Positions 2,933-19,971 of a stretch of 64,000 bases of DNA are shown here, one piece after another. The stretch is from Sedimentisphaerales bacterium (lineage in GTDB: Bacteria > Planctomycetota > Phycisphaerae > Sedimentisphaerales > SM23-30). The notes under the pieces are model-generated. The model was not told the DNA's origin and did not search any database. It was given only the letters and a program-made list of their open reading frames with translations. The number at the start of each line of letters is the position of its first letter. The first letter of the stretch is position 1. The stretch lies in the NCBI GenBank assembly GCA_963663965.2, contig CAXXFK010000013.1, positions 181,469-245,468 of the forward strand, given 5' to 3'. The position numbers and the translations under genes are program-made.

Positions 2933-5900
2933 ATGACTTATTGGATTGACATACTCAATCGGGCCGGCGAATATTTTTGTGAATATTCTCTGGGGATTCT
3001 AATCCAGTCCAGTCTGTTAATCGTGGTGTTGCTGGTGATTGACTGGCTGATCCGCAAACGGGTGCGGGCAGTGGTGCGGTATTGTTTGTGGATGCTGGTG
3101 CTGGTTAAGCTGGTGTTGCCACCGACATTGTGTATGCCGACGGGAATTGGCTACTGGTGGGCGCCTGATCTGATAACCCGACAGACCACGAATAAATCGA
3201 TTGAGGAGAAATTGGAGGCGATGGAAACCGGTGAAACCAGCCCTGACACGGTCACAATTCTGCCAGAGCGTACCTATTTCGAAAAGCCTACGGTTATCTG
3301 GCCGGATGCGCCGGTTGTTGATAGGGGAGGTGAAGTGTCGCCGCCCGATCCTGCGGGTAACGTGGATATGCAGGAGGCAGTGCTGGCAGCGCCAACAACA
3401 ATGGATGGTGACGCATTTCAGGGTGTGCAACCGGTGGTTCAGACGGTTGGAATTTCGCTCGACTGGCCGGCTGTTTTTATGTTGCTGTGGGTGGTCGGGG
3501 TAGTGATCCTGGGTGTTTTGCTGGTCCAGCGTTTTCTCTTTGTGCGGAGTCTGATCGCACAGAGCCGTCCGGCATATGGGAATGAATTGAATGATTTGAT
3601 AATCTGCTGCCGGCAGATGGGCATACGACGGCCGGTAGAATTACGTTTAACGGCCAATATGCTCAGTCCGGCGGCGTGTGGTTTGTGGCATCCGGTGATT
3701 TTGATGCCGGACGCATTATTAAAAGATCTGACCCAGGATAAGTTGCGTTCAGTGCTGATTCATGAACTGGCACATATCCGGCGCGGTGATTTATGGATTA
3801 ATTTCGCGCAAACATTATTACAGATCGTGTTTTTCTATAACCCGCTGCTCTGGCTGGCCAATGGCATCATTCGAGGTATTCGCGAAAAGGCGGTCGATGA
3901 AATGGTGTTGACGAAACTGGGGGATCAGGCCGAGTCTTATAGCCGTACGTTGATCGATATTGCCGAGATCGCGTTTTCGCGGCCGCATTTCAGTTTGCGG
4001 CTGGTGGGTGTGGTTGAATCGAAAAGCGCTTTGAAAGACCGGATCAGGCATATCGTATCTCGCCCATTTCCCCGATCGGCCCGGATCGGATTGATTGGAT
4101 TGATGAGCGTATGCGCCCTGGCAGTGTTGCTGATCCCGATGGCTAAAGGAGAAAAAGAATTCGGTTTCTGGTCCAGGGGAGATTATCGCGTCAGTTTGAA
4201 AAACGGAACGACCGTTGAACTGGTTGGTGTTTGTAAATACCCGGGTGAAAGTGAACAGTGGTGGGGGCCGGATGGAGCGCTTCTGGGGATGGATATCGAT
4301 ATTCAGTTATTCAGCAAGTGGACCTTTGAAGAACCTGACTATGGCCTGGTATTCAGAAAAACCGGTGATGCCGAGTTCAATATATTTAATATTAAAGGAT
4401 CCAGCCAGACAATGAGGATGCTCGGGATCCAACCTGAAGAGCTAATTGGTTATCGAATTCCTATCGATGGCCGTTTAAATAAGACCAATGTCATTATTGC
4501 CAGTCCAACCGGTCAGTGGCAAACGGCTTATGCTTCAAGCGCCATTGAAGGATCCAGTAGTGGTAAACTGCATGGCAAGAATATTATTTTCGCAGGAGTA
4601 GTGAAAGAAAATGACGGCCTGATCTTTTCGTGTACGGATGAAGTGGGATATCGAAATGCCACACGGGTGATCGCTATTGATCACAACGGATTTGAACATG
4701 TTGGCATCGAATTAACGAATACCGGTATCGAGGGAATTCGGCAACGCACGGTTCGGTTTGCCAGCTTGGCTGGCGGAGAGGTTGACCGGATTGCGTTTCA
4801 GACCAGTCCTTATGAGTATCATACTTTTAAAAATGTCGCGTTGCGGCCCAAGCCTGAAGAGTCACGCAAGGCGCTACCGGTGCCCAAAGACGGGCTTTAT
4901 GAAAATGCTAAAGGCTCTCGCAATCATAAAATTAAGATTGGGCCCACCCGGTTTGAGGTTCATACGGTGGCGCGTTATGACCAGAAAGGTAACGCATTAA
5001 TCAAGAATCCGGATGGTACCGAAAAGCAGGAGATTGATCTGTCAACGCCCGATTACTCAGAAAAGGTGAAGTGGATGGATATCGCCCGGATTTATCTGGC
5101 GCCGGTAACGGCTCGCTATGATGTGATTGAGTTGCGGATTTTTGATCACCTGACGCGAGAACTGCTTTCCAGTGAGACCTATCCCGGCCTGGGCTATGCG
5201 ATTAAGGATTCGGTTGTGACGGTCTGGAGTATGGAGAAAAAACTTCCGGAGAGCCTGGATATCTGGATACGCTTGTTACATAATCCTGATGGTCAGGAAC
5301 GCTTTTCTCTTGAGCCGGCGATAGGCAGTTCTGTCCGTATTGATGGCAATACGGTTCGGATTCTTGATTATGCTCCAGGGCGTTATAACTGGGCCAATGG
5401 TAAACGGACGCAGCATCATTCGGAATGGGACAGCAGTGTTACTACAATAGCGTTAGATTTTGACCGGTCAGGAAATAAAAACTATCAGATCTGTGCGGTG
5501 GGTCAGGATGGAAAGCGCGTCGTGCCGGATTTTCCACATTTTATCCGTCCGTCAAACGGTATGCAGATAATCGAATTCGGGATAAGGTCTGACCAGATCG
5601 ACCATTTTGAGATTAGGCCATTTAATGGACGCGATCGTTTTTACTTTGATGATGTCCGGTTACCGGAACGGATAGGGAAACTGGCGCCGATGGCGGACTG
5701 CCCTCCGATTGCGACGTTTCGGCTAGTTGATAAGAAGGCGTCTTATCTATGCCATGAGGATTTGTACGAGGCGGTTTTAACTGTATTGCCTGGTATTAAA
5801 GTGGCCAGTATCCAGTCCAGCGCGTTGGGATTTGGCACCGCCTATACCACAAAACCTTCCGAGCAGGGTCACAACTCAGTTGCTCTTCAATTGACTGGCG

Positions 5901-8900
5901 CCGGGATAAAATCGGTTTCTCTGGTGGCACGCGATAAGGCTGGTAATAAGATCGATCTGGAACCGAATTATGGACACGGCTCGGCGGTGGGTTCAGCTTT
6001 TTGCTGTCATTATATTGAAACAGGAATACCGGTTGATGACATTCAAATGATTGAGGTCTATGCCGGAGAAGATGCCAGTCCCCGTCCGGTCCGCCAGATA
6101 GATAAATTGCAAAATACAGCTGAGTTACAAGCCAAAGTTGATGATTCCCAGTCCAGTCAAATGGAAGGTGACAGGGATTCCCATCAGATTATTTCCAATC
6201 TATTTGACACAAAGATTCCCGATACGGTTACTAATTTTAAAACCACCGGTTCCAATCCTTTCAGTGATGTCCGAATTCGTTTTGATATCCCGGTTGATGA
6301 TCTTAAAAAGGTGATGTTACAGTCAGCCCGTTTTCCGGCGCTGGACGCGTTTCAGCAGGATGATCAATTGGCGGATCATTTGAAAAATGAACCGCTCGTG
6401 AAGGATTATCCCTGGTGGATACCCGATGAGCTGGTCGATAAGGTTTACAGCTGCTGGCAATTTTATCAGGGCGATTACGCCTCATCGATGTACAGTAATA
6501 TCACTTGTGGTGTCGGGAAATTGAGCGATAGCATGGCGCGGGTCTATATCCATAGTTTTTCGGATATGTCAGTTAAGCAAAATCCAGTTAAAAATCAGGG
6601 GGTCGAATTGGGTGGATTGCTTTGTCTGCTGCATGCCGATCGCTCGGCTTGTCTGGAAGGCCAGGCGCCGGTAATTAAGGTGACGTTGAGAAATACCGGC
6701 AAACCGGAAACGCCAATCCGGCCATTAATGGTGACACCTTCTGCGGAAGGATTTATGTTGAAAATCCAGAAGGATGATGATGTGGATATTCGTGTGCGTC
6801 CAAAGAAAGCACCATTGCCCGAAATGCAATTATTACCTGATAGTCGAGTTCCTGAGATTGAAATTCCACTGGATAAGAACTGGTATCCACGACAGAAGGA
6901 TATCGAAGGGGAACAGGATTTGGAACTTACGCCGGGAAGTTATACTGTGCAAGTGATTGCGCAGGCTCATGGGACTCTGGATAGTCATAAACTGGTGAAT
7001 TATCAAGTTACCAGTAATCCGGTTGAAATCGATATCATTCCGGCTGATACAATCGCGTCCATGGCTTTCCAACACCCATTTCTGTCGGTGACACAACAGG
7101 ATGTAACCGCGCAACTGCTGGGTATTCGCAACTGGAGAACGGGTGAATTCTGGGCGGTGGATGGCACGATGACAGCAGCGCCGTATGGCTATGTGGCCGA
7201 TTGGAATCCGGCGGAAGATCCGGATTGTGAAGCCTATGACTGGTATGAATTTGTTGTCAGGCTGGAACGCCCTGCTTATGAAGATTTGGGAGTGATCCGT
7301 TGGGATTTTGATCATATGCTCCATTCCAGTTCGGCTAATTCCAAGCCGTTGTTGTACAAGCAGGATATCCATATCGGCACGGTGAAATTACCTTATGGCA
7401 CTTCTGAAACGACTTTGAACCTGGGATTGGCCGTGCGGCCCTGGCAGACAGTGGCTTCCGGCAATCATCTGGGATTTTATTCGGCCGGCGATGATACGAT
7501 TAATATCAATTACGGGACCCAGTTTGGTTTAAAACGGGTTCCGCCGGGATCGAATGGCCACGCGATTCTGGTGACTTATACGATCACCGACCGGCAGTTC
7601 AGGGCGATCGCTATAGGGAAAGACGGTACGATGCACGAATCGGCCTTTCATGGTTCTGGCGGTACAGATTCCATGCGGCAGACGCTGGCGTATTTTGAAG
7701 AGTTGAAGGCGCGGGATGTAAGGGAATACCGGTTTCAAATCAAGCCATTTGATCGCTTTGTTTTTGAGAATATTCCATTGCGTCCGAGTCGTGTGACTGA
7801 CAAATCCCAAAAAGGTCTGGCGGTTCTTTGTTATTACGCCGGCACAAATCCCGGCCATGTCGGTAGTTATTTTCTCGATCTGGCGACAGGTGAGCAATTT
7901 AATGCCACCGGAATCTATGGCAATTTGAGCAATGCCCGGGATTTCGAAAAGGGCGATCTGATTTATAACCAGGGTAAAATCGCCTGCGTGCGTGAGGCAA
8001 AAATCGAGAAGTGGGAGAATGGCACACTCACGCCGGCTGCCATCTGGCCGGAGTCTTTGATTCGCAACGATCTTAAAGGTTCTGTCGCTTATTATGAACT
8101 TGAGCAGGTTCCGGCCGAGTATGTAGTAACGACCCGGGAAGGGCGTCGATTCCATATCCAGGTACTGGCGGCGGACCGGCGGATTGCCTGTCTGGAGTTC
8201 TGGCCTGATGATACCACGGTTCGTACCAGGGATTGGTCCGAATCGGTGGCAAAAATGATTGACGTTGCCGGACGATGGCTCAAGATTAATCGATTTGATG
8301 ATGCCAAACTGCTGGCTGACCGCCTGGTTGAACTGGCGCCAGAAAATCCTGATACTATTTTGCTCAAAGGGATGTGCAGTGTGAATGATCGGGAAGAACT
8401 GACCAAACTATATCAACTGGCACTGACGCGATATCAAGCCAGTAATAATCGCATCGGCGAGTATCTTGCTCAAAGGTTATTGGGAAACAGCGAACAAGCT
8501 GATCAGTTAATTCGCCACTCCCAGCAGAATCTCGCATCAGCCGGTTTTGCTGGATTGTCGAGCGAACAGCTTGAATTTTATATCATTAATCAATCAGAAC
8601 CAAACGAAGAAGTTGCTGCCGACTCCGGTCAGAACCTGGTTGTCGAGCTACCTGATGGAGGTACGCTCACGCTGGCAGGAGTGGCCAGAGTATCTAAAAA
8701 CAGCAAGACCTGGTATAGTCCGGATGGCAGGGGGCGCGTGAGTGAAAAAGATACCCGGCCTAATTATATCCCGCAGCCTGATGGTAATAGCTATGAATAC
8801 CGCATCCGGTTGGATACCCCGTTTAATAAGCAGCATAAAACATCCCAGATCCGATGGCTTTACGAACCAGACCCCACATCCATCTATTGTCTGGCGCATA

Positions 8901-11900
8901 ACTGGGCAGAGGGTGTCGATCAATGCGATGTGCGACTCCAATATCCAACTGAGATTAAAACGGCGAATATTTCTTTACAACTTTCCAACGGTCCCTGGGC
9001 AACAGTTGGTGTCAATCCGCCAGAACCAGGTAAGGAATTCCAGGAACAGTTTGGGATATTTTCAGTGATCGTATTCAATACGATTGATGAATCTGATGGG
9101 GGGATCTCTATAGAGTTGAGGCATCCTTTCCAGCGTTTGGGGCATCGGCTGGTTGCGTTTGATAAAAGCGGTCAATTACGCATGCCGGGTACCTATCGTG
9201 AAAATCAACCCGGCCAGGTTTCGGTACGCTTCGATGGATTGACACTGGATCGGGTGGAAAAATTTGAGTTTCAGACTCAGGCGTTAACAACGGTCAATTT
9301 CGCTGAGGTGGCCTTACAGGATGGGGTGATGACTAATCCGAAAGTGACTTTGCGTCAAACCGCGAATGACCCGATGGCTGGCGAGAACGAGATCAGTGGG
9401 GTGGTTTATGGACCGATTACGGATGATACGATGGATGCCTATTTCAAACGACTGGAAGCCGCGGAATCTCAGGATGAACTGGATCAACTCCACGCCTCTG
9501 AACCTCCCAGGGCAGATCGTCCGGCAGTAAGTACGCTGGTGCGATTGCAGGGGCAAACCCTGACCCGGCAGACGATTACCCGCCAGATGGCTACGAATGA
9601 CAAGGGTGAGTATCATTTTTCGGATTTACCTATGGGATGGTATCAGGTTTCGGCTGAACAAACGATATCCGGCAATCTCACCGGAGGTAATCGCAAGGCA
9701 GTCGCGCAGGGTAATGCTCAGTTTAACCGAACGACCCTCAATCGAAGGGTATTACCTTTACATTTACGAGATGATTTTGTGACGGTCAGGGGGCGGGTGA
9801 CTGACGCGGAAGGGAATCCGATTGCCGGGGCCAGGGTAGCCGGACAGACAGCGCCGGTAGAAAATAATGGGATCGGTGAGACCGATGAACAGACCCGGGC
9901 CTTCGCGCCACAAAACGTTTCAGCCGTTACAAATGCTGATGGCATCTATGAGTTGTCTGGGTTGGAACCAGCGAATGTCATTGCTGCGTTACGCTATCTG
10001 GTGAATGGGGGGCCGGGCTTTGAACTGGGTCATAAATTCTTTTTAGATATGACGGTAATGGCTGGTGAAAAGAACGCCTCCACTCGAGCGACCCGGCGGG
10101 TACCACTGGTATCCCAGGTGACTTTGTATTGGGCCCGGCGCTATCTGGAGGTAGCGAATCGAACCAGCGAAAAACCGGTTGTTGAGAAGCCGGATTTGCC
10201 TTATCCGCTTCCCGTCAGTCATGGATACAGGATTATTAATATCGATTTTATTTTACCGGAACCGGGTTCCAGCTTGCCGAAGTCCGGCGAATCCCGCACC
10301 GTGATGTTGCCTTCCAGTATCAAACAGGCGCTGGATTTAACATCTGGTCGGTTTGTTGAAGTTCCCATGGAAGCGTTGTCCTCACAAGAGGCCTGTCTGG
10401 CATATCTTAAAGAGCGAACTTCGGGTGGCGTTTTGTTCGATCATGATGGTGACATCTCGCAACTGGGATTTGTTAACATGACGAAGATCAGCCGGAATAC
10501 CGAAAAACAGGTTGGGATCGACACTATGAAATTTGCGTCGAATAATACGCCGCAGGATCTGGTAGTAGCGACCAGTCAAGACTTGAGATTTCAGCTTACT
10601 ATTATTAAGGCAACTGATGAGGGGTGTCAACTGGAATACCAGCTTCTCGCTGATGAGGCTGCTGATCCGGCTAAGGTTTGGCCCGAAGCGGTTCCCGATA
10701 AGTCTGATGGTCCGGCTGATTTTGAAGCCTATTTTCCTGAGAGTGAAGATGGCGCGCAGGCGCTGGAGACGCTGTGGAACGACCGGGAAAAAGATTTGCG
10801 TGACGCCGATGAAATTCTGGAGACGGTTCGAAAGGGATTGCGTGGATACCACGGACAGGGGAATATTATAGGCTGGGTAGGAAACCTGTTTATCTGGGGT
10901 AAGACTCCACAGAATGAAAAAGCCATTGAGTTAATGCTGCACGCATCCGACTCGCCGGATCGCAACCTGTATGGAGACGCGATCTATTTTGGTTTGTCGG
11001 TAACCAAAAACAAGACTCCGGCGATCCTGCAGGCGATGGTGGCGGTTGCCATGAAGACGGAGGATTATAGTGTTACCGGGCGTATCTTATGGGGGTGTGA
11101 CGGACAAAAAGATAAACTGATGACCTGCCTGGAACCGTATCAGAATTCGCCGGATCCTGCGGTCAGGGATAAGGCACAGGATGTCAGGGATTATTTTAAC
11201 GACAGTAAGGCGTTTATGGCCAAGCGTGAACAGCAACGCATCGAAATACTTAAAAAAGACTATGGCGATAAGCTGGATGATTTTAAACAGACCCTGCTGG
11301 AAGGTGATAGCCTATCACGGAAAGACTTGCTTCAGACATTTAATTCGAAGGGTTTAATGACAATTATCGATACCAGTTTTCTGGATGGATTCCAGGCGTG
11401 TCTTACTGATGAAGATCCTTCAGTCCGTTCTCAAACAGCCCGATTGATTGGCGGGCATTTCGTCTGGAGCGCAGAAACTCAAAATCAACGTGTAATCGAT
11501 ATGATGACTGAGTTGCTTGCCGATCCAGTTCGTCAGGTGCGTACGGAGGCTGTTTATTTTGGTCTGTCAACGGTGCGCAATCCGGATAAGGATCTGGTTA
11601 GTAAACTGTTGGCAACGATCCTGGATGATCGAGAGGTGAATTATTATGGCCGGGTGATCTGGGGTGTTAAACGGAACAAGCAAGCATGTATAGAAGTTTT
11701 ACAGGGATGGATGGATCGGGATCGATATGATACTGCGCAGCAGGCGGTTAAGGCGTACGAGATTTACGAAGATGTGACTGAACAGCCGTTACCGGAACAA
11801 TATGCCCAACAGTTTACTGCCCGGAAATCCAATGCCCATGAGGGGCTGGTGGCCATGTGTTATTCGCCACAAAAGATTGATATGGATAAAGAAACCCTCA

Positions 11901-13249
11901 GCCAGATGATTATCGGCAAATTGTCGGAAGCCGGATTATTGGATAAGGTGGGGGGGCTTTATATTCTGGAACATCGGGATTCGACCGCGGCATTGTTTAC
12001 TTGTCAGACGCTTTCGGATCGTAACGCGATTCGAACTGCTCTTACCAAAGAGTCTTCGTTTCAAGTCGCCGGTTATATTGATGGACTGATTGGTCCGACC
12101 GGCAGCGGGTGGCTTTCATCGCTGGATGCATTCAAAAAAGCGTTTGAAGCCAATCAGATTGCGTTACCGACTCAATCGACGTTATCGTCCAGCAATAAGC
12201 CGGGCGATCCGTCTCCCAAACATCCAGATGAGTTGTCCGGCTGGGTTTGGATATCGAATGGTAACCGTGCTGTTGGAGCGGAAGTGTCTTACGCCACTCG
12301 TCAATGTACGGTTTATGTTGGTGATAAAGGCAAGTTGTCTGCCGGTTTTGGCTCAGGAAGTCATAAGTGTATTATTGCGATAACCGGGGCCAATGGTGAG
12401 TACAATCTGGGCAAATGGCCGAATTCTGATTTTACGTTAATTGTTACGCATGAATCCGGCTGGGCTAAGCTGGATTCCAGCGAACTGACTGGGAATATTG
12501 ATATCGTTTTGAAACCCTGGGGCCGGATTGAAGGTGTGCTGGCGCCAGGACGAATGCCCACAGAAGGCAAAATTATCCTGAGTGAATTTCCGAATACCAC
12601 CTGGCTGGATCATAAAGTGGACTTTAATTATGAAACGGGGCGTAATTATAATACCGGCCGATTCACCTTCGATTATCTTCCTGCCGGTATGTATGAAATC
12701 GGCTATCTGACAGCGACTGGTGATTTTTCATCCAGTTTAACCTGTCGTACCCCTGTAGAGGTGATTGGCGGCCGAGTCAGTTCCATGACCCTGGGCGGTT
12801 CCGGACGTGCCGTTGTGGGGCGATTTGTGCCACCGGCCGGTTTTAACGGCACTCTCTACTTTGGCGAAGGAATTCGTACGTTGATCACGGCCAGTCCGCC
12901 GGAGCCTAAACCGCAAATCAGTCAGGAACTGTCTGTACAGGAACAGAATGATTTATATCAGCAATGGCGCCGGTCTCCGGAATTCGAACAATGGCGTCGA
13001 AGCTGGCAAAATGAGAAATGGCGTCAGTACGCCTTTAAAATCGAAAAAGATGGCGCCTTTCGGATCGACGATGTTATTCCCGGTTATTATAGTTTTTATG
13101 TCGAATTGAAGGAGCATCTGGCTAATGGACAAAATGCTAAGGTGCTCGGTGGATTTTACGGTAACATAACTGTACCAGCTGACGAAGATGAGTCCGAATC
13201 TCAACCGTTCGATACCGGTGATCTGGTTCTGGTTGGGACTAATGGCTAA
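2933..13249 (+). CDS. Giant M56 family (BlaR1/MecR1-like) metallopeptidase sensor with mosaic extracytoplasmic region
   Basis: 3438-aa uninterrupted ORF; N-terminal TM helices, 'SPAACGLWHPVILMP', HELAH zinc motif, 'REKAVDE'; later repeated beta domains, TPR-like and HEAT-like segments, and carboxypeptidase-regulatory-like domains (GRVTDAEGNPIAGARV). Confidence 0.9.
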   Translation: MTYWIDILNRAGEYFCEYSLGILIQSSLLIVVLLVIDWLIRKRVRAVVRYCLWMLVLVKLVLPPTLCMPTGIGYWWAPDLITRQTTNKSIEEKLEAMETGETSPDTVTILPERTYFEKPTVIWPDAPVVDRGGEVSPPDPAGNVDMQEAVLAAPTTMDGDAFQGVQPVVQTVGISLDWPAVFMLLWVVGVVILGVLLVQRFLFVRSLIAQSRPAYGNELNDLIICCRQMGIRRPVELRLTANMLSPAACGLWHPVILMPDALLKDLTQDKLRSVLIHELAHIRRGDLWINFAQTLLQIVFFYNPLLWLANGIIRGIREKAVDEMVLTKLGDQAESYSRTLIDIAEIAFSRPHFSLRLVGVVESKSALKDRIRHIVSRPFPRSARIGLIGLMSVCALAVLLIPMAKGEKEFGFWSRGDYRVSLKNGTTVELVGVCKYPGESEQWWGPDGALLGMDIDIQLFSKWTFEEPDYGLVFRKTGDAEFNIFNIKGSSQTMRMLGIQPEELIGYRIPIDGRLNKTNVIIASPTGQWQTAYASSAIEGSSSGKLHGKNIIFAGVVKENDGLIFSCTDEVGYRNATRVIAIDHNGFEHVGIELTNTGIEGIRQRTVRFASLAGGEVDRIAFQTSPYEYHTFKNVALRPKPEESRKALPVPKDGLYENAKGSRNHKIKIGPTRFEVHTVARYDQKGNALIKNPDGTEKQEIDLSTPDYSEKVKWMDIARIYLAPVTARYDVIELRIFDHLTRELLSSETYPGLGYAIKDSVVTVWSMEKKLPESLDIWIRLLHNPDGQERFSLEPAIGSSVRIDGNTVRILDYAPGRYNWANGKRTQHHSEWDSSVTTIALDFDRSGNKNYQICAVGQDGKRVVPDFPHFIRPSNGMQIIEFGIRSDQIDHFEIRPFNGRDRFYFDDVRLPERIGKLAPMADCPPIATFRLVDKKASYLCHEDLYEAVLTVLPGIKVASIQSSALGFGTAYTTKPSEQGHNSVALQLTGAGIKSVSLVARDKAGNKIDLEPNYGHGSAVGSAFCCHYIETGIPVDDIQMIEVYAGEDASPRPVRQIDKLQNTAELQAKVDDSQSSQMEGDRDSHQIISNLFDTKIPDTVTNFKTTGSNPFSDVRIRFDIPVDDLKKVMLQSARFPALDAFQQDDQLADHLKNEPLVKDYPWWIPDELVDKVYSCWQFYQGDYASSMYSNITCGVGKLSDSMARVYIHSFSDMSVKQNPVKNQGVELGGLLCLLHADRSACLEGQAPVIKVTLRNTGKPETPIRPLMVTPSAEGFMLKIQKDDDVDIRVRPKKAPLPEMQLLPDSRVPEIEIPLDKNWYPRQKDIEGEQDLELTPGSYTVQVIAQAHGTLDSHKLVNYQVTSNPVEIDIIPADTIASMAFQHPFLSVTQQDVTAQLLGIRNWRTGEFWAVDGTMTAAPYGYVADWNPAEDPDCEAYDWYEFVVRLERPAYEDLGVIRWDFDHMLHSSSANSKPLLYKQDIHIGTVKLPYGTSETTLNLGLAVRPWQTVASGNHLGFYSAGDDTININYGTQFGLKRVPPGSNGHAILVTYTITDRQFRAIAIGKDGTMHESAFHGSGGTDSMRQTLAYFEELKARDVREYRFQIKPFDRFVFENIPLRPSRVTDKSQKGLAVLCYYAGTNPGHVGSYFLDLATGEQFNATGIYGNLSNARDFEKGDLIYNQGKIACVREAKIEKWENGTLTPAAIWPESLIRNDLKGSVAYYELEQVPAEYVVTTREGRRFHIQVLAADRRIACLEFWPDDTTVRTRDWSESVAKMIDVAGRWLKINRFDDAKLLADRLVELAPENPDTILLKGMCSVNDREELTKLYQLALTRYQASNNRIGEYLAQRLLGNSEQADQLIRHSQQNLASAGFAGLSSEQLEFYIINQSEPNEEVAADSGQNLVVELPDGGTLTLAGVARVSKNSKTWYSPDGRGRVSEKDTRPNYIPQPDGNSYEYRIRLDTPFNKQHKTSQIRWLYEPDPTSIYCLAHNWAEGVDQCDVRLQYPTEIKTANISLQLSNGPWATVGVNPPEPGKEFQEQFGIFSVIVFNTIDESDGGISIELRHPFQRLGHRLVAFDKSGQLRMPGTYRENQPGQVSVRFDGLTLDRVEKFEFQTQALTTVNFAEVALQDGVMTNPKVTLRQTANDPMAGENEISGVVYGPITDDTMDAYFKRLEAAESQDELDQLHASEPPRADRPAVSTLVRLQGQTLTRQTITRQMATNDKGEYHFSDLPMGWYQVSAEQTISGNLTGGNRKAVAQGNAQFNRTTLNRRVLPLHLRDDFVTVRGRVTDAEGNPIAGARVAGQTAPVENNGIGETDEQTRAFAPQNVSAVTNADGIYELSGLEPANVIAALRYLVNGGPGFELGHKFFLDMTVMAGEKNASTRATRRVPLVSQVTLYWARRYLEVANRTSEKPVVEKPDLPYPLPVSHGYRIINIDFILPEPGSSLPKSGESRTVMLPSSIKQALDLTSGRFVEVPMEALSSQEACLAYLKERTSGGVLFDHDGDISQLGFVNMTKISRNTEKQVGIDTMKFASNNTPQDLVVATSQDLRFQLTIIKATDEGCQLEYQLLADEAADPAKVWPEAVPDKSDGPADFEAYFPESEDGAQALETLWNDREKDLRDADEILETVRKGLRGYHGQGNIIGWVGNLFIWGKTPQNEKAIELMLHASDSPDRNLYGDAIYFGLSVTKNKTPAILQAMVAVAMKTEDYSVTGRILWGCDGQKDKLMTCLEPYQNSPDPAVRDKAQDVRDYFNDSKAFMAKREQQRIEILKKDYGDKLDDFKQTLLEGDSLSRKDLLQTFNSKGLMTIIDTSFLDGFQACLTDEDPSVRSQTARLIGGHFVWSAETQNQRVIDMMTELLADPVRQVRTEAVYFGLSTVRNPDKDLVSKLLATILDDREVNYYGRVIWGVKRNKQACIEVLQGWMDRDRYDTAQQAVKAYEIYEDVTEQPLPEQYAQQFTARKSNAHEGLVAMCYSPQKIDMDKETLSQMIIGKLSEAGLLDKVGGLYILEHRDSTAALFTCQTLSDRNAIRTALTKESSFQVAGYIDGLIGPTGSGWLSSLDAFKKAFEANQIALPTQSTLSSSNKPGDPSPKHPDELSGWVWISNGNRAVGAEVSYATRQCTVYVGDKGKLSAGFGSGSHKCIIAITGANGEYNLGKWPNSDFTLIVTHESGWAKLDSSELTGNIDIVLKPWGRIEGVLAPGRMPTEGKIILSEFPNTTWLDHKVDFNYETGRNYNTGRFTFDYLPAGMYEIGYLTATGDFSSSLTCRTPVEVIGGRVSSMTLGGSGRAVVGRFVPPAGFNGTLYFGEGIRTLITASPPEPKPQISQELSVQEQNDLYQQWRRSPEFEQWRRSWQNEKWRQYAFKIEKDGAFRIDDVIPGYYSFYVELKEHLANGQNAKVLGGFYGNITVPADEDESESQPFDTGDLVLVGTNG

Positions 13250-15004: not shown

Positions 15005-16468
15005 GTGGATCGACGCTATTTTCTGAAATTATCCGCCTGTTCGTTACTTCGGCGGCCATTCCGGCTGTGAGCCGGGCCCAATCGCCCAAAAAGCTCAATA
15101 TGCTGTTTATTCTGGTGGATGACCTGGGATGGACCGACCTGGGGTGTTTTGGCAGTTCGTTCTATGAAACGCCGAATCTGGATAAGTTCTGTACCGAGAG
15201 TATGAAATTTACCAACGCGTATGCCGCCTGTCCGGTTTGTTCGCCGACCCGGGCGAGTATTATGACGGGTAAGTATCCGGCGCGAACGGCTAATACGGAC
15301 TGGTTTGGCGCGCCGCAAGCCGGAGGACGGCCAAGAACCACTGGACGCGCAATAAGCCGCTGCTGCCGGCTTCTTATTCGGAGAATATGGCGCTGGAAGA
15401 GGTGGACGCTGGCGGAGGGCTTTTAAAGCGGGTGGGTACTCGGACCTTTTTTGCCGGGAAATGGCATTTGGGTGAGACGGAAGCCTACTGGCCGGAACAT
15501 CAGGGGTTTGATATCAACAAGGGAGGGCATTTTAAAGGATCGCCGCCGGGCGGTTTATTTTGCGCCGTGGGATAATCCGCGGCTGGAAAACGGGCCGGAT
15601 GGAGAGCATCTGCCGGATCGGCTGGCCCGTGAGACGATTCAGTTTTATTCGTGAAAACCGGGATAAGCCGTTTCTGGCTTACCTGTCGTTTTATTCGGTG
15701 CATACACCGCTGCAGAGCCGGGAGGATCTGAAACAGAAGTATCTGGATAAGAAGAAACGGCTGGGGCTGAAGGCCGGAATGGAAACCGGAAGGGGATCGG
15801 CAGGCGCGGCAGGTGCAGGAGCATGCTGTGTACGCGGGGATGGTGGAGGCGATGGATCTGGCAGTGGGGAAGGTGCTGGATTACGATTACGGAGTTGGGG
15901 CTGGATGGTCAGACGGCAGTGTTTTTCATGTCTGACAATGGCGGGCTGTCGACTTCGGAAGGATCGCCCACTTCCAATTTGCCGTTGCGGGCGGGGAAGG
16001 GATGGCTGTATGAAGGCGGGATTCGTGAGCCGATGATGATCCGGTGGCCGGGAGTGACGAAGCCGGGCAGTGTGTGTGAGGAGCCGGTGATCAGTACCGA
16101 TTTTTATCCTACGATGCTGGAGATGGCGGGATTACCCGGGCGGCCTGATCAGCATGTGGATGGTAAGAGTCTGGCTCCGTTACTACACGGCCGGCGGATG
16201 ACGCGGGGGGCCGATCTACTGGCATTATCCCCATTACGGCAACCAGGGTGGCGCGCCGGGTGCGGCGATACGTGAAGGTGACTGGAAGCTGATCGAATGG
16301 TTTGAGGATAATCGGCTGGAACTATATAATTTGAAAGATGATATTGGCGAACAGTATAACCTGGTATCGGCCAAGCCGCAGCTTGCCGGGAAGCTGCATC
16401 GGCAGCTTAAGGCCTGGCAAAAACAGGTTAACGCACGTTTCCCAACTAAGAATCCTGATGCCCAATGA
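15005..16468 (+). pseudogene. Tat-exported sulfatase, multiply frameshifted
   Basis: GTG GAT CGA CGC TAT TTT CTG AAA (MDRRYFLK) after [50 protein letters not shown] motifs spread over at least six frame segments; stop TGA 16466-16468. Confidence 0.85.
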
Positions 16469-16575
16469 CCTTTAGGGACCGGGCGAGCTTGATTTAAGCG
16501 TACCTTTTCTGTGCGGATGGAACTCTTTGGTTCAACCGTAAAGGGATTGTCTGGATTTTGATGGTTGGCGTTAGT

Positions 16576-17415
16576 TTATTTCTTAACCTCCTGGATGGGG
16601 ATATCGGCCGGGGGTTTGGTGGGGATGCCGAGGGCGTGGAGGGCTTCTTCGCCGTTCTGCTGGGAGAAGGTGTTGAGGGCTTCGTAGCGATTGCAGGCGT
16701 AACTGAAGACCTGGTCGTCAGTTACGCTGTGGTCTTTCATCAATTCGGGGAGTCGGTCTTTGATGTATTCGGGGGCGAGTTTGGCTTCGCTGGGGTGTGT
16801 GGGGATTCTGGGGGGATCGGGGATGTGGACGCGGGGTAAATCGGGAAATGGGTACTCTGGCGGGTAGGCATTGGGTTCGTTTGGTTTTTGTTGTAATTGC
16901 AATTGTTGCAGGAGCTTAAGATTGGCCTGGAAGGTACGATTGAGGTGGGCTTCGTAGCGGGCCAGGCAGTTGAAGGCGGGGGTTTCGAGGGTGAAGGCGG
17001 TACCGACCTCGTTGTGACGTGGGAGATAGATACTCGAATGGGCGAAGGGCTGGTCGATGACGGTGTCTTTACGGATTTCTTCGTTGGTGAGGCGGAGTTG
17101 GTAGACGCGGGCGTCGATCATTTCGGCTTCGATACGGCCGAGTCGTTCGAGACGCCAGGCGGCCGAGACGATCTGGTCGGCGATGTGGCGCTGGAGGTAA
17201 GTTGTTGGTTTGAGATCTTGCAGCAGTGCGGCGCGGAACTCGAGGTAGGTGAGTTCGGATTCGCCGGGGACGATGAGGTGGGCGGGATCCTGGCCGCTGA
17301 GGCCGTGTTTGATGGCATTTTTGGATGAGATGGCCTTGCCTTCGGGGGTTTTGGGGCCGGTGGATTTCTGGGCGTTACGACGGTTGGCTCTGAGTCTTCT
17401 TAGGGAAGATGACAT
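16576..17415 (-). CDS. Hypothetical protein of the uncharacterised 'ANRRNAQKSTGPxTxEGK...NAxKHGL' family
   Basis: 279 aa; strong AGGAGG RBS; N-terminal basic motif and 'AAWRLERLGRIE' / 'LARYEAHLNR' motifs that I recognise from widespread hypothetical proteins; function unknown. Confidence 0.75.
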   Translation of the reverse strand: MSSSLRRLRANRRNAQKSTGPKTPEGKAISSKNAIKHGLSGQDPAHLIVPGESELTYLEFRAALLQDLKPTTYLQRHIADQIVSAAWRLERLGRIEAEMIDARVYQLRLTNEEIRKDTVIDQPFAHSSIYLPRHNEVGTAFTLETPAFNCLARYEAHLNRTFQANLKLLQQLQLQQKPNEPNAYPPEYPFPDLPRVHIPDPPRIPTHPSEAKLAPEYIKDRLPELMKDHSVTDDQVFSYACNRYEALNTFSQQNGEEALHALGIPTKPPADIPIQEVKK

Positions 17416-17470
17416 GGTAGTACCTCCTGTTTAGAAATTTAAAGTTTAGAATTTAAAATGCAAAATTGTG

Positions 17471-18120
17471 GTATCCGCCACAAGGCGGATGTTTTTTTTA
17501 TTTTTCGTTAAGCTCGTTTCGTTGTTGGGGTTAGGGTGATATTTTTTGTCATTGGCTTTGTTTCGTTTTATGTTGGTATTCGCTGTGCTCATGGTTAGTT
17601 TTATCTATCTCTTTTGCGAGATATCCTGGCGGTACGCCTCTGCGAGGCGTGGATTAATCAAAGTAGCAAGCAGGAAGTAGCAAAGTTTTCCCGCCAATGA
17701 ATTGGCGGGCTATGCGCTTTTGATCTCTTCGAGATATTATTTGTATCCGCCTTGAGGCGGATGAGTTTTTATTTTTTGTTAAGCTCATTTCGTTGGTGAG
17801 GTTAGGGTTATTATTTTCATCATTGGGTTTCCCGATAGATCGGGATTTCGCTGCGCTCAACGTTTTGTATTGGTATTCGCTGTGCTCATGGTTAGTTTTA
17901 TTTTTCGCCTCCGGTGCGAAATCCTGTCGGTACGCCTCTGCGAGGCGTGGGTTAAAAATTTCAATTTCATGTTCGTGACCCAGGGTGGCGCTCGTCCTGA
18001 TGGATCGGGACTCGCTCTGGGCTATTTTATACTTGCCCGTTGGGCTGCTTTGGGTATCCGTCCTCCTGAGGCGGACCTGCGGCCTTGAGGCGGATGATGT
18101 TTTTATTTTTCGTTAAGCTC
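17471..18120. repeat. Degenerate tandem array of ~185-210-bp hairpin-containing units (2 full + 1 partial)
   Basis: Units start at 17471, 17743 and 18054 with GTATCCG...GGCGGATG..TTTTTATTTTT(C/T)GTTAAGCTC; units 1 and 2 also share TTGGTATTCGCTGTGCTCATGGTTAGTTTTAT and CGGTACGCCTCTGCGAGGCGTGG. Confidence 0.9.
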
Positions 18121-18287
18121 TATTCAAATTGGAAATCACAAGGCAAAGAATCCACCCACCAAGCTGCGCTTTGTTACGCTTGAAGGCGCCACGGTCTATG
18201 CGCAGAGGGTCTCCGCGGGCGTGGCCGGTTGGGGCGGGGCACGCCGGGGGTTGGCGGGTGGTTTGGGGCTATTAAGGCGACTTTGGT

Positions 18288-18316
18288 ATTATAGACTGAG
18301 TTGCAGTCTGAGTCAA
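18288..18316 (-). promoter_or_regulatory. Near-consensus sigma70 promoter pointing into the repeat array and the 16576-17415 gene
   Basis: Minus strand TTGACT(18316-18311)-17 nt-TATAAT(18293-18288), AT-rich upstream; inverted repeat AGACTG-N5-CAGTCT (18293-18309) spans the spacer. Confidence 0.7.
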
Positions 18317-18556
18317 ATTAAATATATTATTATTATATTATCTAACATATTAATTGTTAATTTGTGTATTTGTTTTTGGTTTATCTTAGATGGAAAATTC
18401 GACGGACTTGATCTTAAGAGTTTGTTTTTAAAGATTTATGTTGATTTCAGGAGTTGTCAATAAAATAATATACTCTGTGATTTATAAAGACCACAATGGC
18501 TGATTGCGTGCTATCTCAAATCATTTCCAGACAAATTATTATGTAGAAAGTCCTGT

Positions 18557-19971
18557 ATGAATAAAACAGCCTACCAACTCATCGTTTTTTTGATTATTGG
18601 ACCTGGGTGTCTGGCCAATGGCGCTTTGGCAAAAATTGAGCCGGCAAAACCCAACATTGTCATTATTGTCGCGGATGACCTGGGGTGGGGAGATGTCGGT
18701 TTTCATGGAAGCCAGATAAAAACCCCCAACATTGACACACTGGCAGAAACTGGAATCGTTCTGGATCGATTTTATGTCGCCCCGGTTTGCACACCCACCC
18801 GGGCCGGATTATTAACCGGTAAATACCCCAATCGCTTCGGAGTAAGAGAGGTGGTCATTCCACCTTGGCGCGATTTTGGAATCGCGCCGGAAGAGGTGTT
18901 TCTGCCTGAGGAACTGGCCAGGGCGGGTTATAAGAACCGGGCCATTATCGGCAAATGGCATCTGGGACATTCGAGCAGGAAATACTATCCACTGAACCAG
19001 GGATTTACCCATTTTTATGGTCATCTCAACGGCGCGATCGACTATTTCACGCATGAACGGGAAGGCGAATTGGACTGGCACAACGACTGGGAGAGTTCGT
19101 ACGACAGGGCTACTCAACCGATCTGCTCGCGGGTCACGCGGTCCAATGCATTAACGAATATTCCAAAGAGGGGCCGTTTTTCCTGTATGTTGCCTTTAAC
19201 GCGCCGCACAGCCCATTCCAAGCCAAGGATGAAGACCTTGAACTTTATGGTTTTGACAAAAGCAAACCGCGCTTTGGCAGAGGCGATACACGAGGGCATG
19301 GCAATACCATTCAACAAACCTATTCGGCCATGGTGACGGCCATGGATCGTGGGGTAGGCGAAATTCGCGAGGCATTAAAAACAAAAGGATTGGATGAAAA
19401 CACCCTCCTGTTGTTTTTCAGCGATAATGGCGCCGACACGGAGGGTGGCGGGGGATCGTGCGCGCCATTGAGGGGGCAGAAGTTTTATGAGTTCGAAGGG
19501 GGTGTGCGCGTGCCGGCATTAATGTCCTGGCCGGCACGATTGAAAGGGAGCCGGAAAATCGATCAGGTTACCGGTTTTTGTGGATGTCATGCCGACGATT
19601 CTGGAGATGGTCGGCATGAAATCGGAGGTGGCATTCGATGGAATCAGTATGGCTGCCGTATTGACCGGCGAGCAGGAAAAAATCGACCGGGAGTTGTATC
19701 TTGGACTGGGGGCTGCGGTAACCAATGACTGGAAATTTATTGAAAAGGGTCATAACAATCGAATCAAGATCCGATGTTGACTTGTTGTTCGAAATCAGTC
19801 AAGATCCATCTGAGCATTGGAACCTGATTACCCAAAACCAGGCAGAAGCAATGGCGCTGAAAGAATTTGTCAGCCAATACGATGCCATTGTGGCCCCCGG
19901 CAGTATTGCCGCCTTTTAATGAGGGGAAAGATGGTTTTAAGGCGCCGAAAGAATGGAAAGTTGAGAATTAG
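18557..19971 (+). pseudogene. Arylsulfatase (ArsB-like), frameshifted
   Basis: Signal peptide, PNIVIIVADDLGWGD, CTPTRAG, GKWHLG, FSDNG, FEGGVRVP; about four frame changes (~19105, ~19578, ~19770, ~19915); final TAG 19969-19971. Confidence 0.85.

Follow-up and report, generated by a model that had tools for sequence, protein, structure and literature searches.

Between two sulfatase genes of the window—the 64,000-nt stretch of Sedimentisphaerales DNA analyzed here, which belongs to a genome of 7.24 Mb in 42 contigs (G000)—lies a compact unit encoded on the minus strand, opposite to both neighbors. A reading of the letters alone (the sequence-only reading) had described it as a strong promoter, a long structured repeat-array leader and an uncharacterized basic protein, and its landmarks are present where that reading had placed them. 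The predicted sigma-70-type promoter, TTGACT-17-TATAAT (18288–18316), agrees with the consensus at 11 of 12 positions and would place the start of transcription near 18281; promoter-like sites numbered nine, against 2.9 in shuffled sequences. A ribosome-binding site (17422–17429) precedes a 279-aa gene (16576–17415), whose product comprises a basic N-terminal segment, a long helical hairpin (residues 73–176) and a low-confidence, Pro-rich tail. A signature DNA motif occurs, as described, in array unit 1 (17551–17569) and within the gene (16870–16882), just past the helical core, where it is translated as N-E-P-N; a third copy (17822–17831), in unit 2, is split by a palindromic insert of ~30 nt. 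The Arg/Lys-rich character ascribed to the protein applies to residues 1–40 (ten K/R vs. one D/E), whereas the protein as a whole counts 35 vs. 34. Both flanking sulfatases (15067–16275 and 18557–19919) are broken into several frames and are either pseudogenes or affected by base errors. Farther away, at 2933–13249, the window encodes a 3438-aa protein with a BlaR1/M56 peptidase-like N-terminus (assigned by eye) followed by many repeated domains.

Downstream of the promoter, the leader opens with a C-rich part (18193–18284) of ~90 nt that is well conserved and represents the most conserved non-coding portion of the unit. It is followed by a REP-type hairpin (18151–18192), a partial array unit with nested small palindromes (17960–18130) and the array units 2 (17690–17955) and 1 (17470–17657). 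The repeated units are real, with a spacing of 271–334 nt, and consist of two full units of ~270 nt and one partial unit rather than the three equal ones described. The two full units fold well compared with shuffled sequences (z −5.9 and −2.9), whereas the GC-rich 5′ domain, which had likewise been taken for a folded one, does so only weakly better than shuffles (z −1.4 in the window’s copy; mean −1.2 over 32 copies). An Rfam search returned a best E value of 0.48, far below the gathering score.

Rather than a lone RNA–protein module, the unit is a ~2-kb cassette that recurs across the genome in 26 intact, dispersed copies, the window’s among them. Besides two fragments, G000 holds 26 full-length copies of the gene (93–100% protein identity to the window’s copy; family A), all of 840 nt, without internal stops and in this respect unlike both flanking sulfatase genes. 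Differences between copies range from 3.9 to 11.1% and are mostly synonymous, with a mean pS of 0.23, a mean pN of 0.026 and a ratio of 0.11, falling to 0.055 in codons 1–100; the 26 copies are under purifying selection (dN/dS 0.11). In the four-gamete test, 4793 of 8646 informative site pairs (55%) failed, even at distances below 100 nt, and distances among copies in the first third of the gene were uncorrelated with those in the remaining two thirds. Taken together, these values identify the copies as diverged, selected and shuffled.

The cassettes sit in intergenic spacers, with mostly unique flanks. Homology among copies starts at a left boundary termed L (18455–18492 in the window) in 18 of 24 copies and extends through an AT-rich conserved stretch upstream of the promoter (18317–18454), of which there are at least two sub-types. 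It ends 72–82 nt 3′ of the stop codon (77–79 nt in most copies) at a TGCGC-like right boundary (16498–16504), behind a family A-specific hairpin (16514–16538). This 3′ hairpin is kept by compensatory changes: across 23 of the 26 copies we counted 22 two-sided changes, whereas 1000 shuffles averaged 9.3 and never exceeded 19, and 74% of it was paired vs. 19–48% when slid. The right end was found in 24 family A zones and in one copy of a second gene family, B (see below). The promoter’s −10 anchor lies no more than 3 kb upstream of 24 of the 26 genes; of the other two, one sits at the end of its contig and one is split by a transposase gene. In 22 copies the leader, from promoter anchor to gene, spans 528–1535 nt and contains one to five units; two leaders were, as judged by eye, lengthened by IS-like insertions.

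Among the G000 copies, we found neither a consistent target-site duplication nor terminal inverted repeats of the cassette, and an empty site for the window’s own copy was found neither in the contigs of three runs nor within G000. Insertion could be demonstrated at one locus of a relative, genome G031, where the gene-holding spacer measures 1368 nt. In four kin genomes, the spacer between the same flanking genes is 47, 141, 338 and 694 nt long, and the three of these spacers that were read do not contain the gene. The earlier suggestion of a mobile module is borne out by the 26 dispersed copies with their common left boundary and right end, and by these empty sites for the relative’s cassette.

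Several parts of the cassette are shared with tyrosine transposase loci. Such transposases may be flanked by REPs or TIRs, forming REPtrons or TIRtrons (PMC3733652); a cassette-like cargo gene between the repeats is not mentioned in the accessible part of that paper. A 1.4-kb Y1-like transposase element located elsewhere in G000 has L as its inverted ends, both of which are present in four of its seven copies; Pfam support for this Y1-like element comes from a 72%-identical paralog alone. The REP-type hairpin of the leader belongs to the same family as the inverted repeats around a RAYT-type gene (G000:C30:221195), and its 32 matches are distributed over family A zones (22), family B (one) and other places (nine). 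L was also considered as an SOS-type operator and rejected, its 60 sites being cassette ends, transposase ends and unrelated spacers. The sequence-only reading had held that generic, genome-wide REP clusters unlinked to the gene family would speak against it. This turned out to be partly the case, because the left end and a portion of the folded domain consist of REP/TIR sequences that belong to Y1-type transposase loci in G000. Even so, the composite units cluster at family A, where 55 of 83 copies of one module fall within 1.5% of the genome. Beside homologs from other lineages whose flanks were read, no long leader was seen, arrays being located downstream or absent. The leader is best read as an accumulated REP mosaic particular to this lineage, not as the functional core.

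Two further features of the surroundings deserve mention. Five cassettes have a common extra upstream piece holding a small signal-peptide ORF (G000:C16:51570-52030, C3:50940-51420, C42:46220-46700, C19:34137-34279 and C11:259770-259890), which suggests captured flanking DNA. C-rich sense-strand flanks accompany family A (20 of 26), family B (14 of 15) and the Y1-like element (7 of 8), compared with 41.8% of 2731 long ORFs and 31 of 51 tRNAs. C-rich codon use was rejected as a hallmark of the element, as it is common to 71 other ORFs.

The signature motif, with the consensus AAAC(G/A)AA(C/G)CCAA over 12–13 bp, is found beside the gene across phyla and in either orientation. A check of its conservation next to homologs had been proposed, and indeed 43 of 72 scorable loci carry the motif at +350 to +1300 from the gene start (30 forward, ten reverse, three both). 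Over 80 loci, its density amounts to 2.0 per kb at +500 to +1000, just 3′ of the core, and to at most 0.13 per kb in bins outside −500 to +1000. The motif is located just ahead of the gene in some alphaproteobacterial loci, and paired ~90 nt apart in many loci of Planctomycetota. Its three forward reading frames appear in 61, 50 and 37 of 259 protein tails vs. 6, 1 and 4 reversed tails; the reverse-strand peptide signature was not enriched (15 vs. 13 in reversed tails), the case for the reverse orientation being made by the DNA comparison (13 of the 43 motif-bearing loci). Because it accompanies the gene in either orientation and across phyla, comparative evidence marks the motif as a DNA-level signal that travels with the gene.

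In G000, 156 exact motif copies were counted, compared with one in the control, with 79 motif loci belonging to neither family A nor family B. We also noted a gene-less repeat family of seven members with paired signature motifs 143–231 nt apart (G000:C10:150315, C11:67059, C29:151640, C32:56362, C33:82207, C38:8369 and C6:5095), in addition to ~70 further motif loci. At least 30 exact motifs were present in 3 of 31 genomes, all three of which hold the gene, two of them in one or two copies; these counts come from kin that are not independent and from assemblies many of which are fragmented. Among the 30 relatives, the large expansions (130 and 32 copies) occurred in two genomes carrying two and one gene copies, respectively, five other gene-carrying relatives had 0–3 exact motifs, and 23 genomes without a detected gene had 0–10 (median 1).

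Turning to the protein, a family A profile search collected 52,733 clusters (50% identity) at E values up to 0.001. The best 80 of 544 GTDB matches derive from Acidobacteriota, Planctomycetota, Alphaproteobacteria, Actinomycetota, Chloroflexota and Verrucomicrobiota, and five genomes chosen for their long contigs gave 110, 56, 33, 8 and 7 matches, which are not to be equated with copy numbers. Sequence searches against Pfam, NCBIfam, PHROG and PDB named no family for the protein. Three single weak matches to PHROG small terminase (TerS) families arose among 119 members, none of which reached the curated cut-off of NCBIfam HGGxSTG (NF041373). A tblastn search with the protein of the window’s copy returned one plasmid record and no phage record, and the ESM Atlas unnamed clusters and, as leads, SEC-C clusters at ≤0.81. 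The AlphaFold2 model (mean pLDDT 73.5) is all-helical and shows a long hairpin followed by a tail of low confidence; with this model, Foldseek (PDB, viral) and VIA-align retrieved generic helical hairpins (Z up to 7.4) and no match to a solved TerS, recombinase or nuclease fold.

A connection to phage genes was made through a protein from genome G172 (L149), which passes the HGGxSTG model and matches the family A profile (hhalign 97.3%; 96.2% for family A and another single phage-type member). This protein has 27 phage-record matches, eight of which carry the annotation terminase small subunit. Six such phage genes were inspected: three are located immediately ahead of the large terminase gene (TerL), with a portal gene following TerL in two of these cases; the remaining ones are an annotated TerS eight genes ahead of TerL, a gene after an annotated pac site and a gene without packaging context. 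The TerS labels on these phage genes denote annotation plus position, and in phiH1/phiCh1 the curators assign the name terS to the preceding, different gene (PMC6210493). Aligning the phage set to family A gave 97.5% with hhalign (E 6e-12) over residues 17–91. As shown by this profile comparison, the N-terminal third of the protein, including the basic segment, shares ancestry with HGGxSTG-type genes that occupy the TerS position in phages. Polar residues nearly invariant in 259 homologs are N14, S18, N33, H37, E52, W87, R91 and Y154; most invariant residues fall in the segment common to the phage proteins, and the conserved RYE helix of family A is without counterpart there. No TerL was detected among 732 neighbor ORFs of 80 genomic loci or on the downstream side of the 26 G000 copies, and one distant homolog was located, by eye, two genes ahead of a TerL-like ORF.

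G000 contains a second gene built into similar surroundings. Family B, a 261-aa gene at 15 loci (e.g. C22:69912-69130 and C30:124448-123912), has a similar promoter, the motif in its tail, array modules and, once, the 3′ end in common with family A, yet relatedness between the two families was not detectable and a database homolog of B was not found outside G000. Its most divergent copy lies directly ahead of a large terminase gene (PHROG E 3e-12) that recurs in 24 of 31 genomes from the order; in relatives, five of six genes ahead of this TerL match PHROG TerS families. A profile of six order TerS rows had 12 matches in G000, all of them family B (E 0.0014–0.015); family B vs. order TerS reached 8.6% in hhalign, and the sequence link between them is weak. 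Ten family B copies show a dN/dS of 0.16 in codons 1–95 and of 0.59 in codons 96–147, and the structure model has a pLDDT of 42. No motif was present at the eleven TerL loci of relatives that were read. We infer that the cell’s own TerS gene was probably taken into the same chassis and amplified as family B, which would make a TerS-like gene plus site a recurring design. A query with the host TerL (G000:C30:123675-122206) found no match in four of the five other gene-bearing genomes, and no PF04860 portal was found in G000. As a side observation, the TerL of G000 is part of an order-wide module (G000:C30:122206-131800; L152–L157) with a CI/S24-type repressor divergent from an HTH gene, an ABC-type ATPase, a GNAT gene, (a ParB-like gene), TerS and TerL, all but the last two named by eye; the module is split in G025. 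In three relatives read, no portal or capsid gene adjoins the module’s TerL, and the TerS–TerL module is a candidate for a domesticated terminase system.

Homologs in other genomes take several forms. One family retains, in 11 of 11 genomes, a single-copy, N-terminally truncated homolog devoid of the basic N-terminal motif; it has no signature motif beside it at the three loci read (L146–L148, in G061, G135 and G212), a possible case of domestication. Three G032 copies (L134, L139 and L144) have lost the helical core through an in-frame deletion that fuses the N-terminal motif to the tail; these are dependent derivatives. Members of an alphaproteobacterial subfamily (L111–L114, L068, L089, L105 and L107) lie immediately downstream of recombination genes that resemble ERF and YqaJ by eye. 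They belong to prophage-like elements, some of which also contain TerL-like and HGGxSTG genes in the vicinity, and in several the motif immediately precedes the gene.

The cassette occurs in many copies with shared boundaries, is inserted into intergenic spacers, and is both selected and mosaic. Our preferred account of these properties, to which we give a probability of about 0.45, is that the small-terminase-like protein binds its own pac-like motif and that the cassette moves with a borrowed enzyme, either a large terminase or a RAYT/TIRYT transposase. The element would be a selfish dispersed cassette composed of a small-terminase-like gene and the recognition site of its product. The protein would oligomerize via its helical hairpin, bind the motif with its basic N-terminal segment and, as it is without an evident catalytic fold, act as a specificity factor delivering motif-bearing DNA to the borrowed enzyme. 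If this were a large terminase, packaging would start at the cassette and transferred copies would recombine with those already present, accounting for the mosaics. Alternatively, the host’s RAYT/TIRYT tyrosine transposases, whose ends border the cassettes, could supply the enzyme. Family B and the motif clusters without a gene would be dependent riders. Against this account stand the confinement of the phage homology to residues 17–91, the unmatched RYE helix, the annotation-based TerS labels, the weak link of family B to TerS, the lack of detectable relatedness between families A and B, the five of seven gene-bearing relatives with at most three exact motifs and the one genome with ten motifs but no detected gene; its packaging branch is weakened because TerL is missing beside the 80 loci, the host TerL finds no match in four of five genomes and G000 has no detected portal.

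A real possibility, if an unlikely one, is that the cassette is passive cargo between REP/TIR ends moved by RAYT-type transposases, its protein having no part in mobility and being kept for a benefit to the host, for instance as a decoy small terminase that blocks phage packaging or as a protein binding the chromosome at the motif sites. The left end is, after all, the TIR of a transposase element and part of the leader a RAYT REP, and the gene at G031 locus L135 lies between 88-nt inverted repeats of a 207-copy family, part of which is also found beside a Y1 transposase gene. The intactness of the 26 copies under purifying selection, unlike decaying IS copies, and the retention of the truncated homolog throughout one family would fit as well. 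However, L is present at one end only in G000 and the right end is family-specific, some REP-flanked G031 copies are without the repeat at one end, and the repeats vary between lineages while motif and gene remain together, expansions to at least 30 motif copies being seen only with the gene present. That the protein is itself a new recombinase or transposase, cutting at or near the motif via S18, H37, W87, R91 or Y154, appears quite improbable. Its near-invariant polar residues, the few genes facing many motif clusters (as for a transposase and its MITEs) and the multicopy state of internally deleted copies speak for it; the all-helical extended hairpin without a recombinase or nuclease fold match, the lack of an HxxR, DDE or HUH signature by eye, the lack of consistent target-site duplications and of terminal inverted repeats in G000, and the location of most invariant residues in the segment common to phage proteins speak against it.

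We consider it a rather remote prospect that leader and array form a long structured RNA serving as the protein’s functional partner or as a mobile intermediate. Its appeal comes from the strong promoter anchored well ahead of the gene in 22 copies, the conserved first ~90 nt, the well-folding units and the covarying 3′ hairpin. The weak folding of the 5′ domain, the sharing of leader hairpins with RAYT loci, the lack of an Rfam match and a 3′ hairpin that would suit single-stranded DNA just as well as RNA count against it. In addition, the motif can be oriented either way and can precede or follow the gene, and no such leader accompanied the homologs of other lineages whose flanks were read; a structured RNA array bound by the protein, as the sequence-only reading had proposed, finds no support as the main interpretation. 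Lastly, mixed reads of repeat copies can yield mosaics, and the flanking sulfatases are frameshifted; we nevertheless regard it as very improbable that errors of assembly or polishing have produced the copy number or the mosaicism, given the mostly unique flanks, the extent and synonymous bias of the differences and the same amplification in other genomes. Moreover, in contigs from two runs of one sample, the summed depth was 70–170 inside the element, with many variants, vs. mostly <8 outside, a depth that does not equal copy number.

How does a cassette driven by a small-terminase-like protein and its site compare with known systems? Phage TerS proteins assemble into rings, bind pac DNA, often at a site inside their own gene, and stimulate TerL. 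An example of a pac site within a gene is phiH1 (PMC6210493), and the cassette’s candidate cognate motif likewise lies within the gene. Phage TerS and HGGxSTG (NF041373) proteins further share with family A the homologous N-terminal segment (TGPKT.EGK...N...HG) and the next helix, and phage TerS its helical hairpin core. In contrast, the Cys/His part of HGGxSTG is absent from family A, which has the extra RYE helix, and phage TerS genes adjoin TerL and portal genes, whereas the 26 family A genes occur on their own, with no neighboring TerL, portal or capsid gene. Phage satellites (PICI/SaPI) and gene transfer agents (GTAs) use their own TerS to redirect packaging. They share with the cassette a TerS-like gene outside a phage genome and, in the order, a TerS–TerL module without adjacent head genes; yet PICIs have an integrase, a replicon and att sites, and GTAs a head–tail gene cluster, whereas the cassette is a single gene on ~2 kb in many copies. 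REPtrons, TIRtrons and REP-BIME mosaics resemble it in being intergenic, hairpin-rich and lineage-specific repeats (PMC3733652), the left end and one leader hairpin being ends of such elements in G000, and G031 copies lying beside or between REP-like repeats. Their central gene is a Y1/HUH transposase, however, while the cassette’s gene has no Pfam match and is not among the PF01797 matches in G000; they are flanked on both sides, as is the cassette at G031 L135 but not in G000, where one L end faces a private right end; and REPs do not carry a cross-phylum motif. Insertion sequences and MITEs likewise form dispersed copies with empty sites in kin and gene-less derivatives, but insertion sequences have a known transposase, terminal repeats and target duplications, whereas the G000 cassette showed no transposase, terminal inverted repeats or consistent target duplication, and their copies are near-identical or decaying, whereas cassette copies are 23% diverged at silent sites, intact and mosaic. 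For insertion sequences, REPtrons, PICI/GTAs, HGGxSTG proteins and Rfam families alike, one or more defining features are missing from the cassette. The cassette corresponds to none of the kinds of mobile element considered: without a recognizable transposase, it is nevertheless inserted, multicopy, selected and shuffled. Our full-text literature search, which covered mainly open-access papers, found no description of family A.

With 52,733 clusters, 26 to about 100 copies in some contiguous assemblies and no Pfam, NCBIfam or PHROG model, family A now has a testable handle: an ancestor type (phage genes at the TerS position), a 12–13-bp candidate binding site, two candidate helper enzymes and a second case in G000. 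A broader extension, doubtful as it stands, would see TerS genes with their own pac-like site as a general, unrecognized class of chromosomal selfish elements, with tens to a hundred sites per genome, spread as a large terminase begins packaging at the cassette and the cassette, together with adjacent DNA, is transduced and recombines with resident copies. Just as uncertain is whether any TerS gene that acquires a site could be amplified in the same way, as the host’s own appears to have been in family B. If the decoy reading were true, the cassette would represent a high-dosage anti-packaging defense. If instead the packaging reading were true, such genomes would possess roughly a hundred programmed sites at which gene flow resembling lateral transduction could start, a new chromosome-wide route of gene transfer in abundant uncultured bacteria.
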